A DNA stretch of 64,000 nt from positions 458,853 to 522,852 of the forward strand of contig CAWINB010000004.1 in the NCBI GenBank assembly GCA_963837465.1, written 5' to 3'. Positions 42,078 through 64,000 of this stretch are shown one piece after another. The notes beneath the pieces are model-generated. The model saw only the letters and a list, made by a program, of their open reading frames with translations. It made no database searches and had not been told where the DNA came from. The position numbers were made by a program, and so were the translations under genes. Each line of letters opens with the position of its first letter. Positions within the stretch are counted from its first letter, which is position 1. This DNA comes from Candidatus Doudnabacteria bacterium. Its GTDB lineage: Bacteria; Patescibacteriota; Doudnabacteria; UBA920.

Positions 42078-44285
42078 ATGCAATCAAAATTCGTCAAAGG
42101 TTTGTTTTGTTTTTTGGTTATTGCCGCTTTATTAACGCCGTTTTGGGTCTTTAAAGAACTATTGTTCCCGTTCATTACCTCCAAAGCTTTTTACCTCCGG
42201 ATTCTGGTGGAGATTACTTTGCCGCTGTACGTTTATTTGCTGATGAAGTATCCGCAATACCGGCCTTCCTGGAAAAACCCACTGACAATTTCCATAACCG
42301 CGTTTTTATTTCTGAATTTTATTGCCGCCATTTTTGGAGTTAACCCGCTCCGCGGCATTTGGGGCAACTTTGAACGCATGGGCGGCGTATTTTATCTGGC
42401 CCATCTGACCATGCTGTATTTTTATGTTCTGCTTTTGGGCCAAATGGGGGGCAGGTATATGCGCTGGTTTTTGGATGCGGTAATTTGGTCCGCCGCTCTT
42501 ATTACCTTAGACGGCATTTTAGTCCAGTTGACCCATAATCACTTTTTGCTCAGTGACCCTTCTTATCCGCGTGTTTCCGGCACCTTTGGCAACCCGATTT
42601 TTATTGCCAGCTACCTGGTCATCCCCATGTTTTTAAGCTGTTATTATATGGTTTTGGAAGACAGGCGCTGGCTGAAAATTGTTTATGGGATTGTCGCTTT
42701 TTGCGAACTTTATCTTATTGTATTAAGCCAAACCCGCGGCGCGGTGGTGGGGGTTGCGGCCGCTTTGTTTGTAGGCGGCGTGACTTATGTTTTTTTGACC
42801 AAGCAAAAGCAGGTCCGGAAATGGGGTATCATAGCGGTTGTAATTTTTATCGCCTTAACGGCCACGGCGTTTACCCAGCATGCCAAGTTCAAAAAAGGCT
42901 CCTTACCTTACCGCGTGCTTAACCTAAAAGACTCCAACACCGAATCCAGGTTAATCCAGTGGGGCGTGGCCTTAAAAGGCTACACGCATTATCCGATTTT
43001 AGGAGTGGGTCCTGAAGATTATTATTTCCTTTCCAACAAGTACTACAATCCGGCCATTTACCAATACGACCCCAGCTGGTTTGATAAGCCCCACAATTAC
43101 CTTATAGAAGTTCTGGTGACCACGGGCATTGTGGGTTTTGGGGCTTACGCCGCGATCTTAGGATTTTTTATCTGGATTTTGTACCGCGCTTACAAAAAAG
43201 ACCTGCTTTCTTTGATGGAATTTTGTCTGCTTCTCAGCGGTTTTTTGGCTTACGAATTCCAGAATCTGACCGTGTTCGATACCATTTCCGCCAGCCTTAT
43301 GTTTTTCGCTTTTTTAGGTTTCGGCGCGTTTTTATGGCAGGAATCCATGGAAGTAAAAAAGCCCAATTTAAAGGGTTTGGATGCGTTTTTTATCGCCATC
43401 TCAACCGGTTTGACCGCGGTTGTCATGATTTATGTAATCTATGTCTGCAATGTTTATGGCATTCGCATCGCCAAGGATATTAATTACGGTTACGCCTACA
43501 GCACCGTAGACCCGCAAATCGCTTACAATTATTTTCAGACGGCCGGTAGCCTGCCCTTTGACTTTGACCCCATACAATTCTCCTCCAAATACGCGGACTT
43601 TGCCAGCGCCCTGGCCGCCAATCCCGGCGGCCAAAGCCCTCAGTTTGTAAACCAGGTCATGCAGGACGCCATAACCGCGCAGCAGGACGCCATTAATGAA
43701 ATATCCAATGATCCCACAGCCTGGCAGGAGCTTTCCAATTTATATTTAAATGAATCCATTGTAAACAAAACTTCTCCTGATCCAAAAGCGCTCGAGGCAG
43801 CCGACGAAGCTATCAGTTTAGCTCCCAGACGGCCGGAACCGTTGCTGCAAATGGCCAGGGTGGAATTGATACAAAATAATCTTACCGGCGCCGAGCAAAC
43901 ACTGCTGAAGTTATTAAGTTACATTCCGGAAGAACAGCAGGCCAGCTTTGAGCTGGCGCTGGTCTATAATTATTCCGAACAAACCGCCAAAGCGGTGCCC
44001 TATGCCGAGCAGGCTTTGGCAGAGGGATTTACGCCGACTCAGGCGGCTCAGATTGACTGGCTGGCCCAGTATTATACCCAGAAACAGGACTGGTCGGATG
44101 CCGAACGGATTTTCCAAATGGCCGTAAAAATAGACCCCGCCAACTTTAACGATGACTTCAATCTGGCCCAGGTTTATTACGAGCTCGGGCAAAAGTCCCA
44201 GGCTGTCAGTTTGGCGCAGCAGGTAGCGCGGACGGATCCTTCACAAGCCGCTTACGCTCAAGGGCTGATTGCTTCGTTTAAGTAA
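42078..44285 (+). CDS. O-antigen ligase/polymerase-like polytopic membrane protein with C-terminal TPR repeats (candidate oligosaccharyl-transferase/ligase)
   Basis: About 12 TM helices with a Wzy_C-like core (GNFERMGGVFYLAHLTMLYF, SQTRGAVVGVAAALF). The C-terminal ~250 aa are helical repeats (ELALVYNY..., LAQVYYELGQKSQAVSLAQQ). Confidence 0.6.
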   Translation: MQSKFVKGLFCFLVIAALLTPFWVFKELLFPFITSKAFYLRILVEITLPLYVYLLMKYPQYRPSWKNPLTISITAFLFLNFIAAIFGVNPLRGIWGNFERMGGVFYLAHLTMLYFYVLLLGQMGGRYMRWFLDAVIWSAALITLDGILVQLTHNHFLLSDPSYPRVSGTFGNPIFIASYLVIPMFLSCYYMVLEDRRWLKIVYGIVAFCELYLIVLSQTRGAVVGVAAALFVGGVTYVFLTKQKQVRKWGIIAVVIFIALTATAFTQHAKFKKGSLPYRVLNLKDSNTESRLIQWGVALKGYTHYPILGVGPEDYYFLSNKYYNPAIYQYDPSWFDKPHNYLIEVLVTTGIVGFGAYAAILGFFIWILYRAYKKDLLSLMEFCLLLSGFLAYEFQNLTVFDTISASLMFFAFLGFGAFLWQESMEVKKPNLKGLDAFFIAISTGLTAVVMIYVIYVCNVYGIRIAKDINYGYAYSTVDPQIAYNYFQTAGSLPFDFDPIQFSSKYADFASALAANPGGQSPQFVNQVMQDAITAQQDAINEISNDPTAWQELSNLYLNESIVNKTSPDPKALEAADEAISLAPRRPEPLLQMARVELIQNNLTGAEQTLLKLLSYIPEEQQASFELALVYNYSEQTAKAVPYAEQALAEGFTPTQAAQIDWLAQYYTQKQDWSDAERIFQMAVKIDPANFNDDFNLAQVYYELGQKSQAVSLAQQVARTDPSQAAYAQGLIASFK

Positions 44286-44306
44286 CGTAATAATACCGCG
44301 TAAATA

Positions 44307-44339
44307 AAGGGTGCCCCTTTGCGGCAAAGGGGCGCCCTT
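44307..44339. terminator. bidirectional rho-independent terminator between convergent genes
   Basis: aagggtgcccctttgcggcaaaggggcgccctt. Confidence 0.65.
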
Positions 44340-44353
44340 TAGAGTAAGCTTTT

Positions 44354-45463
44354 TCAGGCAGTTGGCTTTAAAACTTGCCGGTAAACCGCGGCAGTTTGCT
44401 CCAGCATTTTTGTTTGGGTAAACATTTTTGATCTTTCCAGGGCTTTGGCGGATAAAGCTGCTGCAGCAGCGTTGCTGTTTGCAATCTCGGTAATCGCCCG
44501 GGCCAGTTGAGCCGGGTCCTCCGGGTCAATCACAATTGCCGCGTCTGCCACAGCTTCGGGGTTGCCGCCGACGTTGGTTGTAATTAGGGGCAAACCCGCC
44601 TGCATGGCCTCTAAAAGGGTATAAGGAAGGCCTTCTTTGCGTGAAGCCAGTACAAAAATATCAAAGGCTTTAATGGCGGCAGGCGTGTCCGAGCGGTAGC
44701 CCAAAAGTTTAACTTTATCCTTCAGACCCAGGTCCGAAATTTGTTGTTCCAGAGCTTTTCTTTCCCTGCCTTCGCCGATTATCGCGCATAAAACTTTGCT
44801 TTTGGTCGCGTCATCCAGCAGGGCAATGGCGCTTATTAAAACATCCAGACCTTTGGTTTTATAAAAATTGGCCACCGAGCCGATTATGATTTTATCGTCC
44901 GGCAAATTCAGGGCCGTTCGCGCCGAATTACGGGGCAAGAATTCTATTTTTGGAATGCCGTTATAAACGGCGCCCATTTTATTTTTCGCGATCAGCCTAT
45001 GGCGCAAAGCGGATTTTTTGTCGTTTTGGGAAACGCAGATTATGTAATTGCGAAAAAAACCCGCGAATTTTTCCAGGGCCAGGTAGAATGTTTTTGCCGG
45101 CCAGGGCAGCGGTTCGTTAAAAATAAACCCGTGGGCGGTAAAAATTATTTTGGCCTTTACAAAAGGCTTGGCCAGGCTGCCGAGAAAACCGGCCTTGCTG
45201 GAGTTTAAATGAATAATGTCCGGTTTCTCCTCCCGGGCCAGTTTTATTATTTCAAACAGGGCCAGAACATCGTAAAATGGATGGATATTGCGTTTTAAGC
45301 AGCGCAACTCAATACAGCTAACGCCCGCTTTCCTGGCATCGTAAAAAAGCTTCACCCCTTCATTGCCGGCCGCTATGGTGCCGTTAAAATTTTTAGCCAA
45401 ATCCAGGACGTATTTCTGCGCCCCCCCGCCATCTGCCTGGGTTATAATATAGAGAATTTTCAT
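44354..45463 (-). CDS. glycosyltransferase family 4 (GT-B)
   Basis: MKILYIITQADGGGAQKYV and the EGLPYTLLEAMQAGLPLITTNVGGNPE motif. Confidence 0.85.
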   Translation of the reverse strand: MKILYIITQADGGGAQKYVLDLAKNFNGTIAAGNEGVKLFYDARKAGVSCIELRCLKRNIHPFYDVLALFEIIKLAREEKPDIIHLNSSKAGFLGSLAKPFVKAKIIFTAHGFIFNEPLPWPAKTFYLALEKFAGFFRNYIICVSQNDKKSALRHRLIAKNKMGAVYNGIPKIEFLPRNSARTALNLPDDKIIIGSVANFYKTKGLDVLISAIALLDDATKSKVLCAIIGEGRERKALEQQISDLGLKDKVKLLGYRSDTPAAIKAFDIFVLASRKEGLPYTLLEAMQAGLPLITTNVGGNPEAVADAAIVIDPEDPAQLARAITEIANSNAAAAALSAKALERSKMFTQTKMLEQTAAVYRQVLKPTA

Positions 45464-45560
45464 TGCTGTTATTATAGGGCAAAAATGGTTGATTTAAAAG
45501 GAGTTTTATGATAAATTATAAGTATTTGGAGCTTGGGCTAGAAATGATATAATTTTACTT

Positions 45561-46634
45561 ATGTTAAAAGTTTTATTTGCAGCCTTAAAATACGATTACG
45601 GCCGGCCCGAGCAGGGGTTATCCGTTGAACATACCAATTTTTACGACAGTTTATTGCAAATGTCGGACGTGCAGACCGACTTTTTTGGCGTCGATGAAAA
45701 CATGCTCAGCTCCAGCCGGGAGGAAATGAACCAAAAACTTATTCAGCGCGTGGAGGAAACCAAGCCGGATTTATTATTTTGTTACCTGCTTAGCGAAGAG
45801 CTCAAAAGAGAAACAATCGGCTACATTACAAAAAAAACCAAAACGAAAACTTTTAACTGGTTTGCCGACGACCACTGGAGAATCCCGATTTTTTCCCGGC
45901 ACTGGGCGCCGCTGTTTACCATGGTCTCCACCACGGATGCCGAAGCATTGGACAGGTACAAGTCTTACGGTATCACCAATGTCATAAAAACCCAGTGGGG
46001 CGCCAACCCGCATTTGTATTTTCCCCAGGATCAGGCTTTGAATCCCGGTAATTTAGATTTAACTTTTGTGGGACAAAAATTCGGCAAGCGCGGCGGGTAT
46101 TTAAAAGAAATCCAAGGCTCTGGCTTGCACGCCGAAGGTTTTGGAAGCGGCTGGCCTGGAGGGCGGGTAAACCACCAAAAAATGCTGGAAATATTTTCTT
46201 ACAGCAAAATTAATTTGAACTTTGCCGAAACCTATTATTACGGCTTCACTTCTTTACTCAAACGCGCGGCCAAGCTGTTCATTGCCAAGGAAATGGGCAG
46301 TTATAAGTTTACCGGGCATCATTTTACCGATAACTGGCGCTCAATGAAAGGCACCCAGAAAAAATGCATTAAAGGAAGGGTATTTGAGGTCCCGGCAGCA
46401 GAGGGGTTTTTGCTTACCGCCGAATCCGACGACGACATTGGCGAATATTATGTCCCCGGTAAAGAAGTCGTTGTTTTTAAAAATATTCCCGAGCTTGTTG
46501 AAAAAGCCAAATACTATTTGGAGCATGAGCAGGAAAGGAACGCTATTGCCAAAGCGGGATTTGACAGGACAATGAAGTACCACACTTACCAAAAAAGGTT
46601 TACCGAAATTTTTAAAGCAATGGGTTTAATGTAG
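45561..46634 (+). CDS. CgeB-family (DUF3880 / Glyco_trans_1_2) glycosyltransferase-like protein
   Basis: C-terminal KGRVFEVPAAEGFLLTAESDDDIGEYYVPGKEVVVFKNIPELVEKAKYYLEHEQERNAIAKAGFDRTMKYHTYQKR matches the CgeB C-terminal signature. Confidence 0.7.
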   Translation: MLKVLFAALKYDYGRPEQGLSVEHTNFYDSLLQMSDVQTDFFGVDENMLSSSREEMNQKLIQRVEETKPDLLFCYLLSEELKRETIGYITKKTKTKTFNWFADDHWRIPIFSRHWAPLFTMVSTTDAEALDRYKSYGITNVIKTQWGANPHLYFPQDQALNPGNLDLTFVGQKFGKRGGYLKEIQGSGLHAEGFGSGWPGGRVNHQKMLEIFSYSKINLNFAETYYYGFTSLLKRAAKLFIAKEMGSYKFTGHHFTDNWRSMKGTQKKCIKGRVFEVPAAEGFLLTAESDDDIGEYYVPGKEVVVFKNIPELVEKAKYYLEHEQERNAIAKAGFDRTMKYHTYQKRFTEIFKAMGLM

Positions 46635-46689
46635 TAGACCAGGTTGTTTTAAATCGGCGCCCGGTTAAAAAAACCCAAGAAGCATAAAT

Positions 46690-47983
46690 ATGGAAACTGC
46701 AATTGTCGGCGTCCAGACCGAGCCTGAGAGAAAATTAAGTGTGTTGGATAAAATCTATTCTCGTCTGCGCAGGACCACCAATAATACATCTTTTATACCG
46801 CATATAGACGGATTGCGGTTTTTGGCAATTCTTCTCGTGGTCATGGAGCATGTCCACGGTTTGATTTTTAACAAATCGCCAATACCTTTTGCCGGTAACC
46901 CGACCATCAGCCAATGGTGGTTTTATGTTTTATTCCAAAACGGGCGCAAAGGGGTTTTATTGTTTTTTGTAATCAGCGGTTTTATTTTGGCTTTGCCTTT
47001 TGCCAAATATTATTGGCGTAACGAACAGGGTCCAAAAGGGGACAGCTCGCAATTGCAAAACAATAAACAAGCTAAGCCGGTTAATTTGAAAGCTTATTTT
47101 ATGCGCCGGTTAACCCGGCTGGAGCCGCCTTATATATTTAATTTAATTGCCTGTACTTTTTTATTAATCTGGTTTGGCCACCCGGATTTTGCCGGCCGCT
47201 TTGCCCATTTAAATTTTTTTGGCATCCTGCCCAGCCTGGCAGAGTCATTGGTTTACCTGCACAATATTATTTCGCCCAACGGTATGTACGTAAATACCGT
47301 AACCTGGTCGCTTGAGGTGGAAATCCAGTTTTATTTACTGGTACCACTTTTGGTGCAGATTTTAAAACTAAAAAAGCTTTACAGGCGTACGGCACTCGTT
47401 TTTTTAATCGGTTTTTTTATTTTTTTACAGCAGGTTTTTCCCACAAATTTATTGACCCTATACAGCTTCATTCAATACTTCCTGCTTGGCTTTTTGCTGG
47501 TTGACCTTTATCTTTCCGGATGGCAAACAAGCTTAAACAAATGGCTTTCCCTGTTAATTGGCATGTTGGTGTTGTTTAATATTTTATATATAGATATTTA
47601 CAGGACGTCTTGGACCGAATATCTTTTCGTTATTCTGGTGTTCGGTTTTTATACTTTGGTTTTTTGCAGTGACGTTTGGAAGAAAATTTTTAGTTGGCGC
47701 TTTTTCACTACCGTCGGCGGTATGTGTTACACCATTTACCTTTGGCACAACCCTATTGCTTCGGGGCTTGGTAACCACACCGTTTTGTCTGCAGCTGACT
47801 AATAACTACATTTTGGAAACATTGTGGCAGATGGCTTTACTGCTGCCTATGGTTTTGTTTTTTTCCGTTTGTTTTTTCCTGCTTATTGAACAGCCCTGCA
47901 TGGATAAAAATTGGCCAAAAAATTTATGGGGCTGGGTAAAAGCTAAATATTTACAGCTCCGCACAGCTGCAAAGCCGGTATAG
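46690..47983 (+). CDS. acyltransferase family 3 (OatA-like membrane O-acyltransferase). An apparent +1 frameshift at ~47790 truncates frame 1 at 47802, and the conserved C-terminal motif continues in frame +1 to 47983.
   Basis: HIDGLRFLAILLVVMEHV, CYTIYLWHNPIASG in frame 1. LETLWQMALLLPMVLFFSVCFFLLIEQPCMD (canonical ...IE.P end) in the +1 frame. Confidence 0.7.
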
Positions 47984-48007
47984 GTTTTTGATACCATATG
48001 ACCTTTA

Positions 48008-48036
48008 TTGACACCTAAAAACCCTTTTGCTATTAT
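48008..48036 (+). promoter_or_regulatory. sigma70-like promoter TTGACA-17-TATTAT upstream of a small HTH gene and wzx
   Basis: ttgaca 48008-48013, 17-nt spacer, tattat 48031-48036. RBS AAAGGGA before the ATG at 48054. Confidence 0.55.
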
Positions 48037-48053
48037 GGGATAAAGGGATTTTT

Positions 48054-48300
48054 ATGTCTGAAATTAAGCCAAACGAGGTTTATACCACCGCTGAAACCGA
48101 GCATTCTGCTAAAAGTCAGCAACAGCACAATAAAGCGCATGCTTAAAAGCGGACTGCTTAGGGCCAATAAAGTCGGCAAGCAGTACCGTATTTTAGGGCA
48201 TGAAATTTTGCGCCTAGTTTCACCGCGAGTTGAGGAAAAAGCGGTTAAGGCCTACCAAAAAATAAAAACCAAAACCAGGGAAAAAATTAACCAATGGTAG
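48054..48300 (+). CDS. small excisionase-family/MerR-like helix-turn-helix DNA-binding protein, split by an apparent +1 frameshift at ~48104-48106
   Basis: Frame 0 gives MSEIKPNEVYTTAETEH... and frame +1 gives LLKVSNSTIKRMLKSGLLRANKVGKQYRILGHEILRLV..., ending at TAG 48298-48300. Joined, it matches the excisionase-type HTH pattern (.T..E.A..L.VS..T..R....G.L.A.K.G...RI....L). Confidence 0.5.
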
Positions 48301-48301
48301 C

Positions 48302-49834
48302 ATGCAACCGGACGAAGTTTCGTTGAGCCAAAAAACCATAAAAAATTCCGCGTACTCTTTTTTGGGCTACACCTGGCCTATTGTTTTTTCTATTTTTATA
48401 ACCCCGGTGGTAGTAAAAAAATTGGGCATTACAGACTTCGGCGTTTACACCCTTGTTAATACTATTATAGGTTTTTTAACGCTGATTGACTTAGGCCTCA
48501 ACATTGCATTGGTCAAGTATATTTCCGAGTATTACGCAAAAAAAGATTTTATTAGCCTGGAGAGGCTGCTGTCTTCGGCCAGGTCGCTTTACGCTATTAT
48601 TGGTTTTGTGGGGCTTGGGGTTTTTGTTGTATTGGGCAAATATGGCATGTCTGCATTTAATATTTCCGGCGCTTACCAGGCTCAGTTATTTCCGGTGTTC
48701 CTGTTGGCCGGGCTAACCTTTTTTGTTAATTCCCTGGGCTGGGTCTATGCCAACTGTTTTCCCGGCCTGCAGCGTTACGACATTTATCATAAGTTGAACA
48801 TAAGCCAGCTGACTTTTTTAAATATTTTAATTCTAGTTGCCGTACTTATGGGCTATAAGCTCAAGGTTATTTTTGCCCTAAATGTTTTGGCTGTAGGGGC
48901 TTTGTACATTGGCTACCGGTTAAACATAAAAAAAGTATTGCCGGGTATAAAAATAACTTACGCCTGGCATTGGGAAGAAATAAAAAAGAGCTATAAATTT
49001 GGTTTTATTGCTGCAATGGGCAGCCTGGCCCAAAGTGCCTTGGTGCAGCTGGACAGGCTAATTATTCCAGTATTTACAGGGCCGGCCGTTTTGTCTTATT
49101 ATAGCTTGCCGGGAAACGTTGCGCAGAAAACATCCGGTATTACAGCCAGCCTGGCAGCTTCCGTATTTCCCATGGCCAGTAGCTTAAACGCTTCCGGTGA
49201 GGATGCCAAAAACAAGAACCTTTACAGGAAAATGGTCCGTTTGGTTACAATTATCGCCGCAGGTTTTACTGTTGCGATTATGGCTTTTTCCTATAAAATT
49301 CTACTGTTTTGGCTAAATAAAGATTTTGCAGACAAAGGCTACATTATTTTAATTATCCTTGCGGCAGTGTATTTTATTTTAGCGCTTTACGCGCCGCTAA
49401 CCAATTATTTAATGGGTATTGGCAAGATAAAATTTTTAACTTCCTGGTCAATTACCCTTGCTGTACTAAACCTTATTGCCCTGTTGCTGCTGGTGCCTTA
49501 CTATGGCATACTGGGCGCGGCCTGGGCTTATGCTATTGGCGTTTTGCCCATCCCGTTAATTTTTTTAATGGTAGAAAGGAATTTTTTAAAATTCACAGGC
49601 ATAGGAATTTTTTACTTAAAACTCTATTCAAAAATAGTTTTTACTGCCGCGGTTTTTTTGCTACTGTCTAAATTTGTCCTTATTCCCCTGATAGTCAATT
49701 TGTTCAGCTTGCTGGTAATTGGGCCTTTGTCCGTTGCACTGTACTTTGTTCTGTATAAGGTTTTTGGTTTTGTCGATCCCGAAGACTGGGATATGTTAAA
49801 AGTTTTTTTACGAAAATTAAAAAGTAAATTTTAA
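48302..49834 (+). CDS. wzx: polysaccharide biosynthesis protein / oligosaccharide flippase (Wzx, MOP superfamily)
   Basis: About 12-14 TM helices. SQKTIKNSAYSFLGYTWPIVFS start, typical Polysacc_synt organisation. Confidence 0.8.
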   Translation: MQPDEVSLSQKTIKNSAYSFLGYTWPIVFSIFITPVVVKKLGITDFGVYTLVNTIIGFLTLIDLGLNIALVKYISEYYAKKDFISLERLLSSARSLYAIIGFVGLGVFVVLGKYGMSAFNISGAYQAQLFPVFLLAGLTFFVNSLGWVYANCFPGLQRYDIYHKLNISQLTFLNILILVAVLMGYKLKVIFALNVLAVGALYIGYRLNIKKVLPGIKITYAWHWEEIKKSYKFGFIAAMGSLAQSALVQLDRLIIPVFTGPAVLSYYSLPGNVAQKTSGITASLAASVFPMASSLNASGEDAKNKNLYRKMVRLVTIIAAGFTVAIMAFSYKILLFWLNKDFADKGYIILIILAAVYFILALYAPLTNYLMGIGKIKFLTSWSITLAVLNLIALLLLVPYYGILGAAWAYAIGVLPIPLIFLMVERNFLKFTGIGIFYLKLYSKIVFTAAVFLLLSKFVLIPLIVNLFSLLVIGPLSVALYFVLYKVFGFVDPEDWDMLKVFLRKLKSKF

Positions 49835-49837
49835 AAA

Positions 49838-50596: not shown

Positions 50597-50606
50597 TCCA
50601 ACGACT

Positions 50607-53790: not shown

Positions 53791-53919
53791 AGCTAAAAAT
53801 TATATCGTTAATTGGTCATTATGTCAACCATCCAGTATAAAAACCGGTTATATTGCAGCATGTATTAAGGTCTGCTACTATTATTTGTATTGGATATATT
53901 TTACTTAGTTTTTTGAACT

Positions 53920-55621: not shown

Positions 55622-56583
55622 AAAAAATTGTAGTCATGCCCGTAAAAAATGAAGCCTGGATTATAGAAAAAACTCTGCAGGCTTTGTCTTTGTGGGCCGA
55701 CAACATTATTATTGCCGACCAAAACTCAACAGACGGCTGTTTGGAAATTTATAAAAAATTTCCAAAAGTCATAGTAATAAATAATCCCGCAAACTACCAT
55801 TCCAGCAACGTCAGGAAATTACTTTTGGAGCAAGCCAGGAAAGTGTCGGTTAACAGTGCAATTTTTAGTTTTGACGCAGACGAAATTCCTACCGTAGAAA
55901 TATTGCAGCCAAAATTTTGGCAGCAAGTTGAAAAATTACCAATTGGTTCTGCCATAGAAATGCAGTGGGTGCAGTTATGGCGTTCAGCAGAACAGTACAG
56001 GGACGACGCATCGGTTTGGTCAAACAGCTGGAAAGTTTTTGGTTTTATAGACGACCCGAGCATGGAGTACGACAACCTAAATGTAATAAACGACCATACT
56101 TCCCGCGTGCCCCAGGCCTCGCTAAAAAATGTTATAAGGTTTTCAGAGCCTAAGGTTCTGCATTACCAGTTTACCAACTGGCAGCGGATGTTGGTTAAAC
56201 AAGTTTATTACAGGATAATGGAATTAATTAAGCGTCAGGCTGGTTTTTGGCAAACGCTTAAAATTAACCTGCGCTACCGTATAACAGAAGACGAACGAGG
56301 TTTGGTATTAAAAGACGTGCCGGAAACTTGGGTAAAAGACTACGAGCTCCAGGGTATAAGTTTAAAAAATTTGCCTGCTGGGCAGTCGTCCTGGTTTGAA
56401 CAAGAGATTGCCGAGTTGTTTAACCGTTACGGTGTAAAGAAATTTTCCGGGCTGGATATTTGGGATAACGCAAAGAACTCCAAGCAAAAAGACCCGCGCG
56501 GCAAATTTACAAAATGGTGGCAAGGACGCCTGGATTTAATAGGGGACTTGGTCAATTGGTTCCGTAAACAGAAAAGTAACTAA
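55609..56583 (+). CDS. glycosyltransferase family 2-like protein
   Basis: VVMPVKNEAWIIEKTLQAL...IIIADQNSTDG (GT2 N-terminal signature), SFDADEIP. Confidence 0.6.
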   Translation: MEKMKKIVVMPVKNEAWIIEKTLQALSLWADNIIIADQNSTDGCLEIYKKFPKVIVINNPANYHSSNVRKLLLEQARKVSVNSAIFSFDADEIPTVEILQPKFWQQVEKLPIGSAIEMQWVQLWRSAEQYRDDASVWSNSWKVFGFIDDPSMEYDNLNVINDHTSRVPQASLKNVIRFSEPKVLHYQFTNWQRMLVKQVYYRIMELIKRQAGFWQTLKINLRYRITEDERGLVLKDVPETWVKDYELQGISLKNLPAGQSSWFEQEIAELFNRYGVKKFSGLDIWDNAKNSKQKDPRGKFTKWWQGRLDLIGDLVNWFRKQKSN

Positions 56584-56592
56584 CTTTTTATT

Positions 56593-57429
56593 ATGGCAGA
56601 TGAGGATATAACTAAAGTCGGTATAATTGGCGTTGGCTTTGTCGGCGGTGCCGCGAGGCAGTATTTTGAAACCCTGCCACTGGAACTATTTTTATACGAC
56701 AAATATAAAAAGTTGGGCTCGGTAGAAGATGTTAACCGGGCGCAGGTAATTTTTGTAGCAACACCTACGCCTTTTGTCCCGGAAACAGGTTTTGATTTGT
56801 CTTTTGTGGAAGGTGCGGCGGCAATTTTAACAGCCCCAAAAATAATTGTCATTAAGTCCTCTGTAGTGCCCGGGACAACCGACAAGCTTCAGGAACAATT
56901 TCCGCAGCATAAGTTTTTGTTTAACCCGGAATTTTTAAGGGAAGCTTCCGCATATAACGATTTTATAAACCCCGACAGGCAAATACTCGGCACCACCGCG
57001 GCCAGCTTGGATGTGGCGGAAAAAGTTTTAAGGCTCCTGCCAAAGTCTGCTTATGAAAAAATTATGCCTGCCAATGAAGCAGAGGTTGTAAAATACATGG
57101 CCAATACTTTTTTGGCCATGAAAGTAGTGTTTGCCAATGAATTTTACAGTCTCTGTAAAGACTTGGGGATTAATTACGAAACAGTTAAAGAAGCAGTCTC
57201 TCAAGACCCCCGTATTGGTGCCTCACACCTGGATGCCGATCATGGCGGTTACCGCGGTTATGGCGGAAGTTGTTTTCCAAAAGATGTTAATGCAATAATC
57301 CAGTTTGCCAACAACAAAGGAATAAAAATGCCGTTGCTGGAAGAAATGAGGGCAATAAACAGGGGACTGCTTAAAAAAAGTAATTTGGACGAAGATTATT
57401 TTTTAACCGGTAAACATAAGAAAACCTAA
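56593..57429 (+). CDS. UDP-glucose/GDP-mannose dehydrogenase family protein, short form (NAD-binding + catalytic-Cys central domain; no C-terminal UDP-binding domain)
   Basis: GIIGVGFVGG, FNPEFLREASAYNDFINPDRQILGTT, catalytic GGSCFPKD. Only 278 aa, against ~390 for canonical Ugd. Confidence 0.6.
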   Translation: MADEDITKVGIIGVGFVGGAARQYFETLPLELFLYDKYKKLGSVEDVNRAQVIFVATPTPFVPETGFDLSFVEGAAAILTAPKIIVIKSSVVPGTTDKLQEQFPQHKFLFNPEFLREASAYNDFINPDRQILGTTAASLDVAEKVLRLLPKSAYEKIMPANEAEVVKYMANTFLAMKVVFANEFYSLCKDLGINYETVKEAVSQDPRIGASHLDADHGGYRGYGGSCFPKDVNAIIQFANNKGIKMPLLEEMRAINRGLLKKSNLDEDYFLTGKHKKT

Positions 57430-57431
57430 GT

Positions 57432-58367
57432 ATGCCAAAAATAACAGTACTAATAGCCGGCGGTGCCGGATTTGTGGGGTCGCATTTGTGCGACCATTAT
57501 GTTAAAAAAAATTACCGGGTAATTTGCCTGGATAATTTAGCCACCGGCAGCCGCGAAAATATTAAGCATTTACTGCCAAAAAAAAACTTTTCTTTTTTAC
57601 GGCAAAGCGTTACCAAGCCTTTGTCTTTGAAAGTCGATTATATTTTTCACCTGGCCTCGCCGGCTTCTCCCGCGCATTACCAAAAAGACCCAATTGCAAC
57701 CTTTGAAGCAAACGTTTTTGGCGCCAAGAATTTATTGGAGCTGGCTAAAAAAAATAAAGCCATGCTGTTGCTTGCGTCCACTTCGGAAGTTTACGGCGAC
57801 CCGCTAGAGCATCCGCAAACAGAAAAGTATTGGGGTAATGTTAACCCTGTGGGCATTCGCAGCTGCTATGACGAAAGCAAGCGAGCGGCTGAAACCTTAT
57901 GCATGGATTATTCTCGTAAATTCGGTGTAAACGCAAAAATAGTAAGGATTTTTAACACCTACGGCCCGCGTATGGGGGCTAAAGACGGCAGGGTTGTGTC
58001 CAATTTTATTGTCCAGGCTCTCTCCGGTAAACCTTTAACAATTTATGGGAGCGGAAAACAAACCCGCAGCTTCCAGTATATAGGCGATCTTATACAGGGT
58101 ATTACAGCAATGGCAGAAAGCAAAAAATTTACCGGCCCGGTAAATTTGGGGAATCCAGTAGAATTTACCATGCTGGAGCTGGCAAAAAAAGTTTTGAGTT
58201 TAACAGGTTCAAAGAGCAAGCTGGCATATAAACCTTTGCCGCAAGACGACCCAAAACAGCGCAGGCCGGACATAAGTTTAGCTAAGTCAAAACTTAACTG
58301 GCAGCCCAAGGTAGGACTTAATCAGGGACTGGAGCACGCAATAAATTATTTTCGCCAAGTCGTTTAA
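57432..58367 (+). CDS. uxs: UDP-glucuronate decarboxylase (UDP-xylose synthase)
   Basis: VLIAGGAGFVGSHL, SEVYGDPLEHPQTEKYWGNVNPVGIRSCYDESKRAAETL is a close match to the UXS/ArnA-decarboxylase signature. Confidence 0.85.
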   Translation: MPKITVLIAGGAGFVGSHLCDHYVKKNYRVICLDNLATGSRENIKHLLPKKNFSFLRQSVTKPLSLKVDYIFHLASPASPAHYQKDPIATFEANVFGAKNLLELAKKNKAMLLLASTSEVYGDPLEHPQTEKYWGNVNPVGIRSCYDESKRAAETLCMDYSRKFGVNAKIVRIFNTYGPRMGAKDGRVVSNFIVQALSGKPLTIYGSGKQTRSFQYIGDLIQGITAMAESKKFTGPVNLGNPVEFTMLELAKKVLSLTGSKSKLAYKPLPQDDPKQRRPDISLAKSKLNWQPKVGLNQGLEHAINYFRQVV

Positions 58368-58381
58368 TTAATTTAAAATAT

Positions 58382-59698
58382 ATGCAAGCGGTCATTTTAG
58401 CAGGGGGCGCAGGGGCTCGCTTAGGGAAGCTAACAAAAAATTTACCTAAGCCTTTGGTAAAAATTGGCAGTAAATCTGTTTTGGAACACCAAATTATCCT
58501 TTTAAGGTCCTTTGGTATTAAAGATATTTTTATTTTAACGGGGTTTAAAGGTGAAAAAATTCACCAGGCTTTGGGCAATGGCCAAAAGTTAGGGGTAAAA
58601 ATTCGATATGATCACGGGCCCGTAGAATGGAATACCGCAGACCGGGTAATGCACGCAAAAAAATATATTAAGAACGACTTTTTGCTTTTGTACGGCGACG
58701 TAATGATCAATTTTGACTTAAAAAAATTTATTAAATTCCACAAAAGCAACCACAAAAACCAACTGGCAACTTTGGTGATCCATCCTAATAACCATCCGTT
58801 ACATAGTGATGTAGTTGAGCTTGGCAGCGACAATAAAATAAAAGCTTTCCACCCAAAACCCCACCCGGAAAATGTTTATTTCCGAAATTTGGTTAATGCC
58901 GGAGTTTATATTATGAGCCCAAAAATTTTCCCTATACTCAAGCGGCACCCGGGCAGCGATTTTGGCCGTACAATTTTTCCTTATATTGTAGCTTCAAAAA
59001 AAACTTTGTTGGCTTATAATTCAACAGAGTATTTCCGTGATATGGGAACTCCGGAACTGCTTGAGCAGGTTACACGGGATTACAAGGCCGGCGTTTATAA
59101 AAAAGGGAGCTTGACATTCAAACGCCAGGCAGTGTTTTTAGACAGGGACGGCGTGCTTAATGAAGAAGTTAACCAGTTAAGCAGCCCCAAAGACCTGCAT
59201 GTTTACCCTTTTTCTGCCAAAGCCCTAAAGCTTTTCAACCAAGCGGGATGCCTGGTTGTGGTTGTAACAAACCAGCCGCAAATTGCTCGCGGCTATATAA
59301 CAGAGCAGGACTTAAGATTAATTCATAATAAACTGGAATGGGAATTGGGCAAGCATGGGGCAAAAATTGACGCCATATACTATTGTCCGCACCATGTTAT
59401 TGACGCCACAGTTGTTCGCCCTGTAAAAAAGTACGCAATTGAATGCAACTGCAGGAAGCCAAAACCCGGGCTTATATACCGCGCAGCTAAAGACTTAAAT
59501 ATTGACCTAAAAAAAAGTTTTTTTGTAGGCGACAGCTTCCGCGACAGTGAGGTTGCAAAAAATGCCAAATTAAAATTCTTGGGCGTGGCTACGGGTTATG
59601 GCTGCAAAGATGCGAGTTTGAATACAGGCAGGGAACCTGAAATTTACAAAAATTTATTAGTTTTAGTTAAGAAGATGTTTAAATACCCCAAAAGGTAA
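58382..59698 (+). CDS. bifunctional D-glycero-alpha-D-manno-heptose 1-phosphate guanylyltransferase (HddC-like NTP-transferase) / D,D-heptose 1,7-bisphosphate phosphatase (GmhB, HAD)
   Basis: N-terminal MQAVILAGGAGARLGKLTKNLPKPLV. C-terminal HAD motifs AVFLDRDGVLN, VVTNQPQIARG, CPHH...CNCRKPKPG, VGDSFRDSEVAKNA. Confidence 0.8.
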   Translation: MQAVILAGGAGARLGKLTKNLPKPLVKIGSKSVLEHQIILLRSFGIKDIFILTGFKGEKIHQALGNGQKLGVKIRYDHGPVEWNTADRVMHAKKYIKNDFLLLYGDVMINFDLKKFIKFHKSNHKNQLATLVIHPNNHPLHSDVVELGSDNKIKAFHPKPHPENVYFRNLVNAGVYIMSPKIFPILKRHPGSDFGRTIFPYIVASKKTLLAYNSTEYFRDMGTPELLEQVTRDYKAGVYKKGSLTFKRQAVFLDRDGVLNEEVNQLSSPKDLHVYPFSAKALKLFNQAGCLVVVVTNQPQIARGYITEQDLRLIHNKLEWELGKHGAKIDAIYYCPHHVIDATVVRPVKKYAIECNCRKPKPGLIYRAAKDLNIDLKKSFFVGDSFRDSEVAKNAKLKFLGVATGYGCKDASLNTGREPEIYKNLLVLVKKMFKYPKR

Positions 59699-60009: not shown

Positions 60010-60996
60010 ATGATTATTTCGAGGACGCCCTTTCGGGTTAGTTTTGTGGGAGGGGGGAGCGACTTGCCCGCTTTTTACAAGAATTTTCCCGGAGCAGTAC
60101 TGACTACTGCGATTGATAAATATGTTTATATAACCGTTAATAAAAATTTTGATTCCAGCATTCGCCTTAAATATTCGGAAGTTGAAGAAGTTGAACAACT
60201 CTCCCAAATTAAGCACCATTTAATTCGGCAGAGTTTGGAATTAATGGGCATAACAAGCCAGATTGAAATTACATCTTTGGCAGATATTCCTGTAAAAGGC
60301 ACAGGGCTTGGTTCGTCGTCTTCTTATTTAGTTGGTGTTTTAAATGCCTTGCATGCTTATAAAAAAAAGAACTCTTCGCCCGAAATTTTAGCGCAAGAAT
60401 CTTCTCGTATTGAAATGGATGTTTTAAGGCGGCCTGTTGGAAAACAGGATCATTATATTGCGGCTTATGGCGGCTTGAATTTAATAAAATTTATGCAGGA
60501 TGGGTCGGTTATTGTAGAGCCCGTGGAAATTCCGGAACATGCCAGGGCCAAACTCCAGGAGCAGTTGCATATGTTTTATACAGGCATTAGCCGGGATACT
60601 TCGGATATCCTTTCCGTGCAAACCAAAAATTTTGAAACCGGCGGACAGTATTATGCCTCTATGGAGCGCATGGTAGAGCTGGCGCATAACATGGCCGAGG
60701 ATCTGGGGCAAGGGAAGATTGAAAAGTTCGGTGAAATGCTCCATGAAAATTGGGAACTGAAGAAACAAATGGCCCATAATATTAGCAATGCCCAAATAGA
60801 CGCCTGGTATGAGGCAGCTCTAAATGCCGGAGCTACGGGCGGAAAAATTTTGGGAGCCGGCGGCGGCGGTTTTTTGTTATTGAATATTCCTCCGGAAAAA
60901 TACGAAGCGGTAAAAAAAGTTTTGCATCCCTTAGAAGAGCTGCCTTTTAATTTTGAACCCAAAGGCAGTGTAATTTTTAATATGCAAGAATTCTAA
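60010..60996 (+). CDS. hddA: D-glycero-alpha-D-manno-heptose 7-phosphate kinase (GHMP kinase, HddA-like)
   Basis: SRTPFRVSFVGGGSDLP and the GHMP motif PVKGTGLGSSSSYLVGVLNAL. Confidence 0.8.
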   Translation: MIISRTPFRVSFVGGGSDLPAFYKNFPGAVLTTAIDKYVYITVNKNFDSSIRLKYSEVEEVEQLSQIKHHLIRQSLELMGITSQIEITSLADIPVKGTGLGSSSSYLVGVLNALHAYKKKNSSPEILAQESSRIEMDVLRRPVGKQDHYIAAYGGLNLIKFMQDGSVIVEPVEIPEHARAKLQEQLHMFYTGISRDTSDILSVQTKNFETGGQYYASMERMVELAHNMAEDLGQGKIEKFGEMLHENWELKKQMAHNISNAQIDAWYEAALNAGATGGKILGAGGGGFLLLNIPPEKYEAVKKVLHPLEELPFNFEPKGSVIFNMQEF

Positions 60997-61042
60997 AAGT
61001 ATTCTCCAGCCGTTGTAAGTTTAATTTTGTAAGGTAGTTCGT

Positions 61043-61594
61043 ATGGAAATAAATTCTTATTTAGAACATATCCAAAAATCTTTACCGTTAATTGATCCTG
61101 TTCAAATAGAGGCATTAGCCTGGGCAATAAGTAAATGCCGGGGGACAAATGCACGTATATTTGTTTTTGGTAACGGGGGCAGCGGGGCCAATGCCAGCCA
61201 TTTTGTGCAGGATCTGCTCAAATGCCCGGTTAAAGATTTTTCCTCAAGCTCCGGCAGGTTTGCTGCTATTTGTTTGAACGATAACACCCCGGTTGTTATG
61301 GCCTATGCCAACGATTTAGACTACAGCGAAGTTTTTCGCCAGCAGCTCATGAATTTTGCGCGTCCGGGGGACTTGGTTATAGCCATAAGCGGCAGCGGCA
61401 ACAGCAAAAATGTGCTTAAGGCCATAGAGTACGCCCTTACCGAGAAGCTGGATACTTTTGGCATATGCGGGTTTGAAGGCGGCGTCCTTTTGGGACTGGT
61501 AAAAAATGCCATACATTTTAAAACCTCAAACATGCAGGTTTTTGAAGACCTATGTTCCATTACCCTTCATGCCGTAGTAAGTAATTTATTATAA
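61043..61594 (+). CDS. gmhA: phosphoheptose (sedoheptulose-7-phosphate) isomerase, SIS domain
   Basis: ARIFVFGNGGSGANASHFVQDL, ISGSGNSKNV. Confidence 0.85.
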   Translation: MEINSYLEHIQKSLPLIDPVQIEALAWAISKCRGTNARIFVFGNGGSGANASHFVQDLLKCPVKDFSSSSGRFAAICLNDNTPVVMAYANDLDYSEVFRQQLMNFARPGDLVIAISGSGNSKNVLKAIEYALTEKLDTFGICGFEGGVLLGLVKNAIHFKTSNMQVFEDLCSITLHAVVSNLL

Positions 61595-61602
61595 ATATAA
61601 AA

Positions 61603-62829
61603 ATGCGACAAAAATATAATTTACTTTTTTTCCACCCCCAAGGCTTGTTTTACGGCGGTACGGAAAAGTTGCTGCAAATTTTTGCCAAGTATTTAAGCTC
61701 TGAGTTTAATGTTTTTTACGCTTACGCGCCGCAGTGCGGAGAGGAGCGAAAAGAATATTTTTCCGGAACAGCGGTAAAATTAGTGCCGTTTTCGTTTAAG
61801 AGCCAACGGGCGTATGAACCTTTTGACTATGCCGGTTTAACCCCTAAGGTTGAAGATTTGATAAACAAATACCATATAGACTGTATTTGCCTGCCCGTAT
61901 ACAGTAAGTACCAGTTTCCGCTGAATACAATTTCTGCCGCCATGCCGTTTGTGTTAACTTCTCCGTTCGGGCATTTTGCCACTAACGGGAGCGTGCAAAG
62001 GGTTTTTGTTTCCGGTAAAAGTAACCTGGAGCGCATGCAAAGGACCGGAGTGAAAATTGCGGAATTAATTTATGACCCCATAGAAGACTTTGAGCCGGGC
62101 TATTTAAACAAAGGGCCAGTTAATGATGTTGTGGTTTTTGGCAGGGTCGGCAGGGCAGATAATAATATTTTTGACCCGATATCTTTAAAGGCCTACGCGA
62201 AATTAGAAAAAAAGTACGGCAATAAGGTGAAGTATGAATGGCTTACCCCGCCGCCTGCCGCCGAACAACTGGCTAAAGAGCTGGGGCTGAATAATTTTAC
62301 AGTTGACCCCGGAACCCAGCAGGATTATTTACCCAAATTCTACCAGCGCGTAGATATTTTGGCTCACGCCCGCAAAGACGGAGAGACTTTTGGTAAAGCA
62401 ATTGCCGAGGCTATGTTGGCCGGGTTGCCAATTGTTACGCACCGTTCCCACGGTTACAATGAACATCTCTATCTTTTGGACCAAAGCTATGCCCGTTATT
62501 CGGAACCTGATGACGTAGAAAAATATTTTGAAAATATGGAGGGGTTTGTTCTTAATAAAGAAAAAATCCGTCCCATGGGGCAACTGGCCAGGAAACGTGC
62601 TTTGGAATTGTGCAGCCCAAAAGCGCAGATGCCTCATTTGCAGGAAGTGTTTTACGAGGCCGCGGAAAAGTGTACTTACTATTCGCGCCCTTCTTTTTAC
62701 CGGGGTAAAATAGTTATGTGGTGGAATAATTTTAAGCAATTCCCTTACTTTGCGGCCAAAAGGACTCTTTATAATTTTCCGTTTTTGAGCAAAAAAGCCT
62801 TGGCATTTTACCAAAAAATAAATCCATAA
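61603..62829 (+). CDS. GT-B fold glycosyltransferase-like protein (GT1/GT4-type E..G...EAM..G.P motif)
   Basis: FGKAIAEAMLAGLPIVTHRS. N-terminal region unassigned. Confidence 0.55.
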   Translation: MRQKYNLLFFHPQGLFYGGTEKLLQIFAKYLSSEFNVFYAYAPQCGEERKEYFSGTAVKLVPFSFKSQRAYEPFDYAGLTPKVEDLINKYHIDCICLPVYSKYQFPLNTISAAMPFVLTSPFGHFATNGSVQRVFVSGKSNLERMQRTGVKIAELIYDPIEDFEPGYLNKGPVNDVVVFGRVGRADNNIFDPISLKAYAKLEKKYGNKVKYEWLTPPPAAEQLAKELGLNNFTVDPGTQQDYLPKFYQRVDILAHARKDGETFGKAIAEAMLAGLPIVTHRSHGYNEHLYLLDQSYARYSEPDDVEKYFENMEGFVLNKEKIRPMGQLARKRALELCSPKAQMPHLQEVFYEAAEKCTYYSRPSFYRGKIVMWWNNFKQFPYFAAKRTLYNFPFLSKKALAFYQKINP

Positions 62830-62833
62830 AACC

Positions 62834-63745
62834 ATGACTTGGAGCAAGCAGGAAATAATTTTAAAATCTTTAAGCTTTTTGAGCCGGCTTTTGGGCAAGG
62901 AATTTATTTATTATTCCAAAAATGAACATAATGGCCTCGGCATGACTGCAGTCAAATCGAGCTACGGGTTTTGGTATGCTGGCAATCTGCTGTCGCCTAA
63001 AGACATTGCCTATGGTATTTTAAATAACGGCTTAATGGAAAAAGAGGGGAGTGAATTGGTGGAAAAGATTTTGGGCTTTGAGCTGAAAAACAAAGCGGAG
63101 TTTACTTTTTATGATATTGGTGCCAACACCGGATACTTCGGGGTTTTAGCCTCATTTTTGGGAAAAGGCAAAGTTATTACCTATGCTTTTGAGCCGCTAA
63201 AGGAGTATAATGTAGTGGAGAATGAAACAATCCGCCTTAACCGTTTGGAGGGGATTTGCTCTGTTTTTAGTGTTGCTTTGGACAGTAAGCCCGGGTACGC
63301 CGATTTTTTCCTTGCCGGAACCGGCTCTACGCTGGATCCGAGTTTTTTGGGCAAAGGACAATACGGCAAAAGGCAAGTTGAGAAAGTTGTTTTAGACCAG
63401 TATATTCAAACTCAAAAATTAAAAGTCCCGGATTTTTTAAAAATAGACGTAGAGGGCCTTGAGTACGGGGTGCTAAGCGGTTCCGCGGCAACGTTAAAAC
63501 AAAATTTACCCGTAATTTGGTACGAAACCGCGGCGTATAATAAGTCGAGGCGGTACGTAAACCCTAATTTTTTAAATACAATAAATTTATTGGAGCAGCT
63601 GGGTTATGAAATTTTTACTACCACAAATAAGGCCTTGCAAAAAGTAAACGGAGAATTTAGCCAAGACGGCTCCCATATGTTTTTAGCTTTACATAACCAA
63701 AAGCACCGGGACTTAAAACTTTTTTTAAACAGCAAAAATAATTAA
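62834..63745 (+). CDS. FkbM-family methyltransferase
   Basis: FYDIGANTGYFGVLASFLGKGKVITYAFEPLKEYNVVENETIRLN...SVALDSKPGYADFF matches the TIGR01444 pattern. Confidence 0.75.
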   Translation: MTWSKQEIILKSLSFLSRLLGKEFIYYSKNEHNGLGMTAVKSSYGFWYAGNLLSPKDIAYGILNNGLMEKEGSELVEKILGFELKNKAEFTFYDIGANTGYFGVLASFLGKGKVITYAFEPLKEYNVVENETIRLNRLEGICSVFSVALDSKPGYADFFLAGTGSTLDPSFLGKGQYGKRQVEKVVLDQYIQTQKLKVPDFLKIDVEGLEYGVLSGSAATLKQNLPVIWYETAAYNKSRRYVNPNFLNTINLLEQLGYEIFTTTNKALQKVNGEFSQDGSHMFLALHNQKHRDLKLFLNSKNN

Positions 63746-63754
63746 ATTATTAGA

Positions 63755-64000
63755 ATGAACCTTAAGGAAAAGTTCAAAAATAAATTAAAAAAGCTCTCAG
63801 GGGTTTTACAAAAACCAACCAGCAGTTATAACGACCACGAAATGTGGTTTCAAAGTCCTGATGTTGTTGAACAAGAGCGTAAGCTGGCTTTGGAAAAAGA
63901 AGATTCAAATACTTTTAACAAGCCGGAGTTTAGGGTTTTGGATTTGCTGGCAAAATATCCCGCGGTGCGCGGTGTAGCCGTAGATATTGGCTCCGGGGCC
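63755..64000 (+). CDS. putative class I SAM-dependent methyltransferase, 3'-partial (runs off window)
   Basis: ATG at 63755, open to the window end. VLDLLAKYPAVRGVAVDIGSG resembles motif I. Confidence 0.45.
   Translation, partial: MNLKEKFKNKLKKLSGVLQKPTSSYNDHEMWFQSPDVVEQERKLALEKEDSNTFNKPEFRVLDLLAKYPAVRGVAVDIGSGA

Follow-up and report, generated by a model that had tools for sequence, protein, structure and literature searches.

In the S-layer glycosylation (slg) clusters, a lipid-linked glycan is transferred to the neighbouring surface-layer (S-layer) protein, and the Wzy_C domain occurs together with C-terminal tetratricopeptide repeats (TPR) both in the S-layer O-oligosaccharyltransferase (O-OTase) WsfB and in PglL, with a separate upstream TPR protein, WsaA, in the case of WsaB (PMC2943079). 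In addition, O-OTase genes usually adjoin the genes of their targets, which are modified in low-complexity regions (PMC3643930). Here we describe a stretch of 64,000 nucleotides (nt) of Candidatus Doudnabacteria bacterium (GCA_963837465.1, CAWINB010000004.1:458,853-522,852), hereafter the window, in which a membrane enzyme of this architecture, Wzy_C-TPR, follows the gene of a 1179-aa secreted protein and opens a glycan locus that covers positions 42078-64000 and runs on past the window end. We favour, with a probability of about one half, an S-layer-glycosylation-like system in which Wzy_C-TPR would move a lipid-linked glycan onto this giant protein. No publication describing the Wzy_C-TPR/1179-aa module was found in the literature.

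The likeness to the slg clusters of Paenibacillus alvei (WsfB) and Geobacillus stearothermophilus (WsaB) concerns first of all the enzyme, in which Wzy_C is combined with TPR that are C-terminal or, as in one annotated relative (L068), also carried by a separate protein. It extends to the position of the glycan locus beside the gene of a large multi-domain surface protein, to the lack of an outer membrane, and to the clustering of nucleotide-sugar genes, glycosyltransferases (GTs) and a transporter, with a lower-GC, strain-specific centre (PMC2943079); in the window, too, the lower-GC stretch coincides with the strain-specific sugar block. The two systems differ in the transporter, which is a Wzm/Wzt ATP-binding cassette (ABC) transporter in the slg clusters and a Wzx flippase here, and in the initiator, which is of WsaP/WsfP type in the former and was not found in the window. 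Moreover, the target family here carries neither an S-layer homology (SLH) domain nor any other Pfam domain, and the enzyme has 13 transmembrane (TM) helices and is often duplicated.

A second comparison is offered by PglL and PilO(TfpO) of Proteobacteria, which resemble the present system in the Wzy_C domain, in the positions of an Arg/Arg/His triad, and in a presumed acceptor gene lying next to the enzyme and outside any lipopolysaccharide (LPS) locus; their acceptors have low-complexity regions rich in S, A and P, a further likeness to the giants of the window (PMC3643930). In this case the differences are that PF15864 was not detected in the window enzyme, that its neighbour is a giant beta-sandwich protein and not a pilin, and that the lineage has no outer membrane.

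The Wzy_C-TPR enzyme and the adjacent giant protein

The gene at 42078-44285 (+), examined by Pfam scan, AlphaFold2 (AF2) modelling and Foldseek, encodes the candidate O-OTase. Its Wzy_C domain (PF04932, residues 207-357) scores 75.9 bits against a cut-off of 31.7, and the family to which it belongs is about 740 residues long, with 40-60% full-length identity across more than 120 Patescibacteria homologues. The AF2 model, obtained from 52 sequences with a predicted local distance difference test score (pLDDT) of 92, shows 12 TM helices with the WaaL fold (Foldseek 7tpg_B, TM-score 0.63), a 13th TM helix and an all-helical TPR domain. This C-terminal domain of 255 aa best resembles the protein-binding TPRs of OGT and SPY (SPINDLY), and a profile search returned overwhelmingly TPR proteins. 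WaaL (7tpg) and the window enzyme are alike in the 12-TM core fold and in the outward catalytic loop; they differ by the extra TM helix, the external 255-aa TPR, the lack of detectable sequence similarity and the lack of an LPS acceptor in this lineage.

Residues R220, R291 and H339 are invariant in the 52 sequences, as are the motifs WGNFERMGG, DPSYPRVSxTFGNP, DKPHN and QNxxVFD. The numbering of the three residues, matched by position and motif and not by superposition, is nearly identical to that of WaaL R215/R288/H338 and PglL R224/R298/H349, the catalytic Arg/Arg/His triads of these enzymes (PMC3643930). Since the Lys/Arg-rich loops mark the cytoplasmic side according to the positive-inside rule, the invariant motifs are expected on the outer face, and the same topology also places the TPR domain there.

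Full-length homologues with 31-35% identity were also observed in metagenome-assembled genomes labelled as other than candidate phyla radiation (CPR), namely L040 and L044 (Gammaproteobacteria), L046 (Bryobacterales) and L049 (Methylomirabilota), some of them adjoining S/T-rich proteins; they could reflect mis-binning or horizontal transfer.

Upstream of the enzyme lie the genes of two giant secreted proteins, one of 1316 aa with fn3, NHL and He_PIG domains (32466-36416, +), which is strain-specific, and one of 1179 aa (37185-40724, +), the candidate S-layer-like protein and glycan acceptor. The latter has a signal peptide, a Ser plus Thr content of 26% and only 5% charged residues; no Pfam domain, and no SLH or CWB2 domain, was matched in it. 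In its model (pLDDT 84.5), residues 35-225 form three small alpha/beta repeats, which are joined by a disordered TG-rich linker to about nine beta-sandwich domains; a fold search returned only generic multi-Ig matches, including an archaeal S-layer protein. A profile search at E<=1e-30 collected 2280 representative clusters of this large and entirely unannotated family; in many members the alignment begins only near position 220, an indication that the N-terminal region differs and the beta-sandwich body is conserved.

The N-terminal region corresponds to a triple alpha/beta module of 190 aa (37287-37859), which is homologous to the C-terminal ~180 aa of the 1316-aa protein (35868-36413; phmmer E 5.5e-26) and for which Pfam gave nothing up to E 0.5. 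In the 1316-aa protein the module is preceded by an S/P/A/G-rich low-complexity stretch, so that both giants of the window carry a disordered, low-complexity linker rich in S, T, G and P next to the shared module. In loci without a giant homologue, the module also occurs on other proteins whose genes immediately precede Wzy_C-TPR. Wall anchoring and acceptor recognition are both conceivable functions of this domain.

The 1179-aa gene is preceded by a perfect sigma-70 promoter, TTGACA-17-TATAAT (36433-36461, +), one of two such matches in the window, where 0.04 are expected. Among 27 related loci with a giant homologue, the same perfect promoter is found 500-760 nt upstream of it in 18 and at about 1430 nt in a 19th; two further loci have a promoter with one mismatch. 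Between promoter and gene lies a conserved structured 5' leader (36462-37184, +), which measures 500-750 nt across loci. By comparing the leaders upstream of the giant homologues in loci L005-L051, we found that they can be aligned among loci despite protein identities of only 38-54%. Specifically, a terminator-like hairpin (36530-36596), followed by a U-run, shows compensatory changes in 14 of its 16 pairs, with 93.8% of the cells paired and none of 500 shuffles reaching as high a value, and a second hairpin (about 36908-36930) with the conserved loop GAUCUCUAGAGC covaries in 9/9 pairs. An invariant block of 25 nt (37124-37148) lies just 5' of the ribosome-binding site and, in each of 26 loci, is present a single time, at this position alone; TGTAACA, CGTCT and GGTCGATC are further invariant blocks. 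The leader, which has no match in Rfam at gathering or lenient thresholds, may represent a new cis-regulatory RNA or an attenuator. Only in the window genome does it contain, as an insertion, a hairpin of 100 nt (37019-37120) with a perfect 16-bp stem and a fold z-score of -6.65, which may be a small mobile element or one resembling repetitive extragenic palindromes (REP). Judging from these signals, the 1179-aa gene is apparently very highly expressed, and a perfect promoter followed by a long structured leader leads us to expect a very abundant envelope protein.

Conserved core and strain-variable sugar genes

To place the locus in its lineage, all window proteins were compared by BLASTP with the six-frame open reading frames (ORFs) of 65 related loci, which had been collected in a scan of species-representative genomes. 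Homologues of Wzy_C-TPR and of the 1179-aa protein were found in Patescibacteria, most of them in genomes that bear the label Candidatus Doudnabacteria; Azambacteria and Paceibacterota have distant homologues. Other genes of the window (ComEC, RelA, GroEL, MetK, transketolase, transaldolase and GlpX) are consistent with a small CPR genome. Judging from these homologues, the bacterium is a Doudnabacteria-like member of the Patescibacteria.

Of the 40 loci whose upstream DNA extends over at least 5 kb, 27 encode a 1179-aa homologue immediately before Wzy_C-TPR, including Azambacteria at 26% identity. GT4 follows Wzy_C-TPR in 40 of 52 related loci. The recurrent block begins with GlpX/DUF2090/LOG/transaldolase, tRNA-Pro, the 1179-aa homologue and sometimes a beta-lactamase-like hydrolase, and continues with one or two Wzy_C-TPR genes, GT4 on the opposite strand, a short-chain dehydrogenase/reductase (SDR), a CgeB-like GT, a GDP-mannose 3,5-epimerase (GME) and sometimes Wzx. 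In the window, the serine hydrolase between the 1179-aa gene and Wzy_C-TPR, which recurs in the same place in relatives, is of Beta-lactamase2/Peptidase_S11 type (40834-42009, +; Pfam). About ten relatives have a GME copy with 65-81% identity downstream of Wzy_C-TPR, in most cases beside the CgeB-like GT. Where the giant homologue is absent, the upstream gene often encodes another S/T-rich protein or a carrier of the 190-aa module; the giants of Azambacteria, on the other hand, have no such module, yet Wzy_C-TPR is still next door. Two tandem Wzy_C-TPR paralogues, 35-45% identical to the query, are present in 21/65 loci (among them L009, L010, L012-L014, L017-L019, L022, L023, L027, L028, L031, L035, L038 and L068). 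The annotated relative L068 shows the same gene order, together with a separate TPR protein of 229 aa upstream of one of its paralogues.

HddA, GmhA, the methyltransferases, the acyltransferase and the 1316-aa protein were detected in none of the 65 loci. These sugar genes are therefore a strain-variable decoration and not a defining feature, and the recurrent block with sugar genes confined to the strain indicates a conserved core to which a strain-specific sugar block is attached. These comparisons alter the picture drawn by the sequence-only reading. It had asked whether the locus co-occurs with the giant genes in relatives, and the link to the 1179-aa gene turned out stronger than first claimed; conversely, it had treated both giants as part of the unit and the heptose pathway as its central feature, neither of which holds, as only the 1179-aa protein is conserved and neither HddA nor GmhA was detected in the 65 loci.

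Within the locus, about 22 glycan genes are packed into 42078-64000, and the gene classes named from sequence inspection are each present at the expected place, with Pfam E-values of 1e-9 to 1e-54. Gene calls were made by Pfam and NCBIfam scans of the window proteins, some being refined by matches to solved structures; unless otherwise indicated, those below rest on Pfam and lie on the plus strand. Wzy_C-TPR is followed by its convergent neighbour GT4 (44354-45463, -; Pfam and NCBIfam) and by the conserved CgeB-like GT of the Glyco_trans_1_2 family (45561-46634). Downstream of these are an Acyl_transf_3 O-acyltransferase (ORF 46690-47802, with the frameshifted gene reaching 47983), a small frameshifted HTH_17 gene (48027-48300; comparison with an independent assembly), a Wzx/MOP-family flippase (48302-49834), a TylF-type sugar O-methyltransferase (49838-50596) and a first GT2 (50544-51509). 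A Nudix hydrolase, weakly Gmm-like, maps to 52511-52954 (Pfam/NCBIfam), a class-I S-adenosylmethionine (SAM) methyltransferase to 54869-55621 and a second GT2 to 55609-56583; a GT1/GT4-like glycosyltransferase (61603-62829) and an FkbM-family methyltransferase (62834-63745) close the window.

The independent assembly used for comparison consists of two 12-kb Logan contigs, which cover about 2.4 kb beyond the window end and show that the locus continues past 64000 with two further methyltransferases and a possible GT. In this assembly the acyltransferase is intact and 430 aa long, the window copy being frameshifted by an extra T at 47788, and the HTH_17 gene, broken in the window by a single-T insertion at 48104, encodes 90 aa in contig L001. 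For the methyltransferase at 54869-55621 it is the Logan assembly that carries a 2-nt deletion relative to the window (L002, ~1579). The indels that distinguish window and Logan contigs are either assembly errors or population variants.

Two genes previously labelled epimerases or dehydratases could be specified. The SDR at 51516-52499 matches Arabidopsis GME (E 1e-94), which we preferred to the label of Fcl/GDP-fucose synthase, and the SDR at 53920-54861 is a GalE-like UDP-sugar 4-epimerase (structure match, E 1e-74). The call of a UDP-xylose synthase (UDP-glucuronate decarboxylase, UXS) at 57432-58367 proved solid, with a match to human UXS1 at E 4e-110. Just upstream, a short Ugd-like protein of 278 aa (56593-57429; Pfam and NCBIfam) has retained the Rossmann motif GVGFVG and, within GGSCFPKD, the catalytic cysteine; its entire C-terminal UDP-binding domain is missing. 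The same short form (~280 aa) is present in two other genomes, in L047 (3493-4362), where it adjoins UXS, and in L041 (11736-12593); therefore, we dropped the possibility of a random pseudogene and regard it as a conserved short form. UDP-xylose would then be supplied by UXS together with this atypical Ugd.

The GDP-D-glycero-alpha-D-manno-heptose pathway serves S-layer glycan synthesis in Aneurinibacillus thermoaerophilus and capsule or O-antigen synthesis in Campylobacter, Burkholderia and Yersinia. The window resembles this pathway in its GmhA, HddA-type GHMP kinase, GmhB and HddC-like enzyme, and it differs from it in an HddC-GmhB fusion and in scores below the NCBIfam cut-offs. Specifically, the GHMP kinase (60010-60996; Pfam and PDB matches) carries the GHMP N and C domains and matches WcbL (4usk/4usm, E ~1e-42), as well as 3k85 and Campylobacter jejuni 4n3o; its top NCBIfam profile, HddA NF049969, gives 157 bits against a cut-off of 600. 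The top PDB matches of the SIS-type isomerase (61043-61594; Pfam and PDB matches), a GmhA-like sedoheptulose-7-phosphate isomerase, are phosphoheptose isomerases (5by2, E 1e-21), again under the NCBIfam cut-offs. The fusion protein (58382-59698) joins an HddC-like nucleotidyltransferase (residues 1-235) to a GmhB-like phosphatase (residues 248-433). The N-terminal half is an NTP_transferase with GDP-mannose pyrophosphorylases as top PDB matches (82 bits), HddC 5xhw/6jq8 at 51-53 bits and the HddC profile NF049965 at 73 bits versus a cut-off of 300; the C-terminal half reaches 153 bits with NF006506 (cut-off 178) and matches GmhB 2gmw and 3l8e. Use of GTP by the HddC-like half is predicted. The order of the two domains is thus the reverse of the gmhB-hddC order initially proposed. 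This fusion architecture is widespread in metagenomic bacteria (3527 matches), and we know of no characterised example.

The proposal of a full GDP-heptose gene set stands in so far as GmhA, HddA, GmhB and HddC types are all present; as every match to a heptose-enzyme NCBIfam equivalog is under its curated cut-off, the assignments hold at family level. The assignment of the branch to the GDP type and not to the ADP type of LPS is supported, as the kinase is GHMP/HddA/WcbL-like and not the PfkB kinase of HldE; likewise, the nucleotidyltransferase resembles GDP-mannose pyrophosphorylases and HddC. No PfkB kinase and no HldD were found in the locus, its SDRs being best explained as GME, GalE-like epimerase and UXS. 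Transketolase and transaldolase, encoded elsewhere in the window, are a possible source of sedoheptulose-7-phosphate.

Candidate protein glycosylation and alternative explanations

All together, these data depict a Wzx-dependent cell-surface glycan locus built of two layers. The core layer would comprise the 1179-aa protein, the serine hydrolase, Wzy_C-TPR, the opposite-strand GT4, the CgeB-like GT and GME; the variable layer would contribute GDP-D-glycero-alpha-D-manno-heptose, UDP-xylose, a 4-epimerase, more GTs, at least five methyltransferases and an O-acyltransferase. According to the glycosylation model, an oligosaccharide would be built on a polyprenyl carrier at the cytoplasmic face, by way of an initiating transferase that would have to be encoded elsewhere. 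Wzx would flip the lipid-linked glycan outward, and Wzy_C-TPR would transfer it en bloc to Ser, Thr or Tyr residues of the adjacent 1179-aa giant; with catalytic loops and TPR both facing outward, the TPR would recognise the acceptor protein. Probable further acceptors would be other proteins in which the 190-aa module stands beside a low-complexity linker.

Wzy polymerases are normally hypervariable, with very low identity between serotypes, and such a divergence with glycan structure is not seen in Wzy_C-TPR. Kept at 40-60% identity while the downstream sugar genes vary, the enzyme fits a transferase or ligase whose acceptor is conserved, and not a repeat-unit-specific Wzy. Of the idea that the adjacent giants are O-glycosylated, what stands is a surface-glycan locus in an LPS-less lineage and the synteny with the 1179-aa gene; what holds it back is that a wall-polysaccharide or anchor reading fits most of the same data.

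Several further points weigh against protein glycosylation. The modification of the giant protein is predicted from genes and models, and its S-layer nature, for which it is a candidate, from architecture, composition and expression signals. The likeness to WsfB and WsaB is drawn from reported domain architecture and not from sequence comparison. No initiating polyprenyl-phosphate glycosyl-phosphate transferase was found in any sizeable ORF of the window or in L068. The PglL_A motif PF15864, which separates PglL from WaaL (PMC3643930), is not among the Pfam matches of Wzy_C-TPR at E<=0.001, and the TM core has no PDB sequence match to any solved O-OTase or WaaL. In general, WaaL, Wzy and O-OTases cannot be distinguished by sequence alone (PMC3643930), and the tandem Wzy_C-TPR paralogues could equally be a polymerase and a ligase.

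The alternative that best withstands the evidence is that Wzy_C-TPR, like WpaA/WpaB, TuaE or Wzy, acts as polymerase or ligase of a secondary cell-wall polysaccharide (SCWP), that the core GTs make this conserved polymer, and that the giants are docked on it via the 190-aa module and are not glycosylated. SLH domains dock onto pyruvylated SCWP, and Bacillus S-layer genes adjoin SCWP-modification genes, an arrangement that counts for this explanation. That two surface proteins with no other relationship share a module, one at its N-terminus and the other at its C-terminus, also suits it, and the presence of the module on other proteins upstream of Wzy_C-TPR, taken with the variable N-termini of the giant family, is the behaviour of a swappable anchor. 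In addition, Wzy_C-TPR has a weak NCBIfam match to TuaE (46.6 bits), GT4 matches TuaC and GTs of the exopolysaccharide (EPS) type, and a polymerase and a ligase would account for the paralogues in tandem. WpaA/WpaB of B. anthracis, for which such a role in wall-polysaccharide synthesis has been proposed, are members of the same Pfam clan, and S-layer assembly is disturbed when they are depleted (PMC6030368); they and B. subtilis TuaE also function without an outer membrane, but they are of family PF13425 and have no reported TPR, and the window has no nearby ligase of the LCP (LytR-CpsA-Psr) type. In fact, neither the window nor L068 yielded an LCP ligase, which speaks against wall anchoring, as do the module-less giants of Azambacteria that still adjoin Wzy_C-TPR. 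An external TPR, moreover, is a reported feature of the protein-targeting enzymes WsfB and PglL (PMC2943079), and a strain-variable heptose and methyl block is a poor fit to a conserved anchor ligand. By weighing these observations, we consider wall anchoring the main rival of protein glycosylation, and about half as likely.

A free capsule, EPS or glycolipid is, in our view, unlikely. In this case a Wzx/Wzy polymer would be released or lipid-anchored, Wzy_C-TPR would be a polymerase with its TPR as export scaffold, and adjacency to the giant gene would reflect a general envelope neighbourhood. Wzx, Wzy_C and many GTs do form the standard layout of capsule and O-antigen loci, in which sugar genes are strain-variable as well, and both the TPR part of the enzyme and GT4 have matches below cut-off to PEP-CTERM proteins, the former to PEP-CTERM/EPS TPR proteins and the latter to a PEP-CTERM-associated GT. 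However, Pfam scans of the glycan locus revealed no Wzz or other polysaccharide co-polymerase (PCP) regulating chain length, no Wza-like exporter and no ABC transporter; the lineage-wide conservation of Wzy_C-TPR across changing sugar genes is not that of a capsule polymerase, and the synteny with the giant family persists down to 26% identity. Finally, the idea that Wzy_C-TPR is a WaaL acting on lipid A-core, with heptose in the inner core, has in its favour that WaaL is the top structural match of the TM core, but we dropped it as highly improbable, given that Patescibacteria are regarded as lacking LPS and an outer membrane, that the kinase is of GHMP/HddA type with neither HldE nor HldD, and that Pfam scans show no lipid A or core genes across the 64 kb, in agreement with the sequence-only reading.

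Returning to protein glycosylation, its combination with the expression signals gives a broader and more tentative scenario. In Doudnabacteria-like and related Patescibacteria, the 1179-aa family would provide the major S-layer or envelope protein; its transcription would start at a perfect promoter and pass through a hitherto undescribed covarying leader with a terminator-like attenuator, and a dedicated, lineage-wide Wzy_C-TPR would O-glycosylate it with a strain-variable glycan of methylated heptose, xylose and L-galactose. Patescibacteria (CPR), which live attached to other cells, account for a very large part of bacterial diversity, and their envelope proteins and glycans are essentially uncharacterised. 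If the combined scenario is correct, it would for the first time make the surface that an episymbiont shows to hosts and phages accessible at the molecular level. The glycosylation reading by itself would name a candidate major surface protein family and the enzyme that decorates or anchors it, and the strain-variable sugars would be what hosts and phages meet; if it is wrong, the locus is an ordinary Wzx-type glycan cluster, correctly annotated. The synteny block, the diagnostic 25-nt motif and the candidate cis-regulatory RNA can all be searched for in metagenomes and metatranscriptomes.

Neighbouring features of the window

The second perfect sigma-70 promoter of the window (53799-53827, -) lies in the middle of the glycan locus and is aimed leftward, in the direction of fragmented ORFs (53029-53747) with the HD-like motif ALLHDACK. 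Both Logan contigs break at ~53571-53576, the border of the conserved and variable halves of the locus.

Upstream of the giants, a low-GC (35%) island (27051-31601, -) is located between the transaldolase gene and tRNA-Pro (32156-32229). In addition to genes of no assigned function, it contains a pair resembling a cyclic-oligonucleotide-based antiphage signalling system (CBASS), with an oligonucleotide cyclase at 29411-30184 (PADLOC E 5e-77) and a 1-TM effector at 30162-30680 (E 7.5e-60). Lastly, a SAM riboswitch (19038-19143; RF00162, 58 bits) was identified upstream of metK; as the listed GTG start of metK (19109) falls inside the riboswitch, the true start is probably later.

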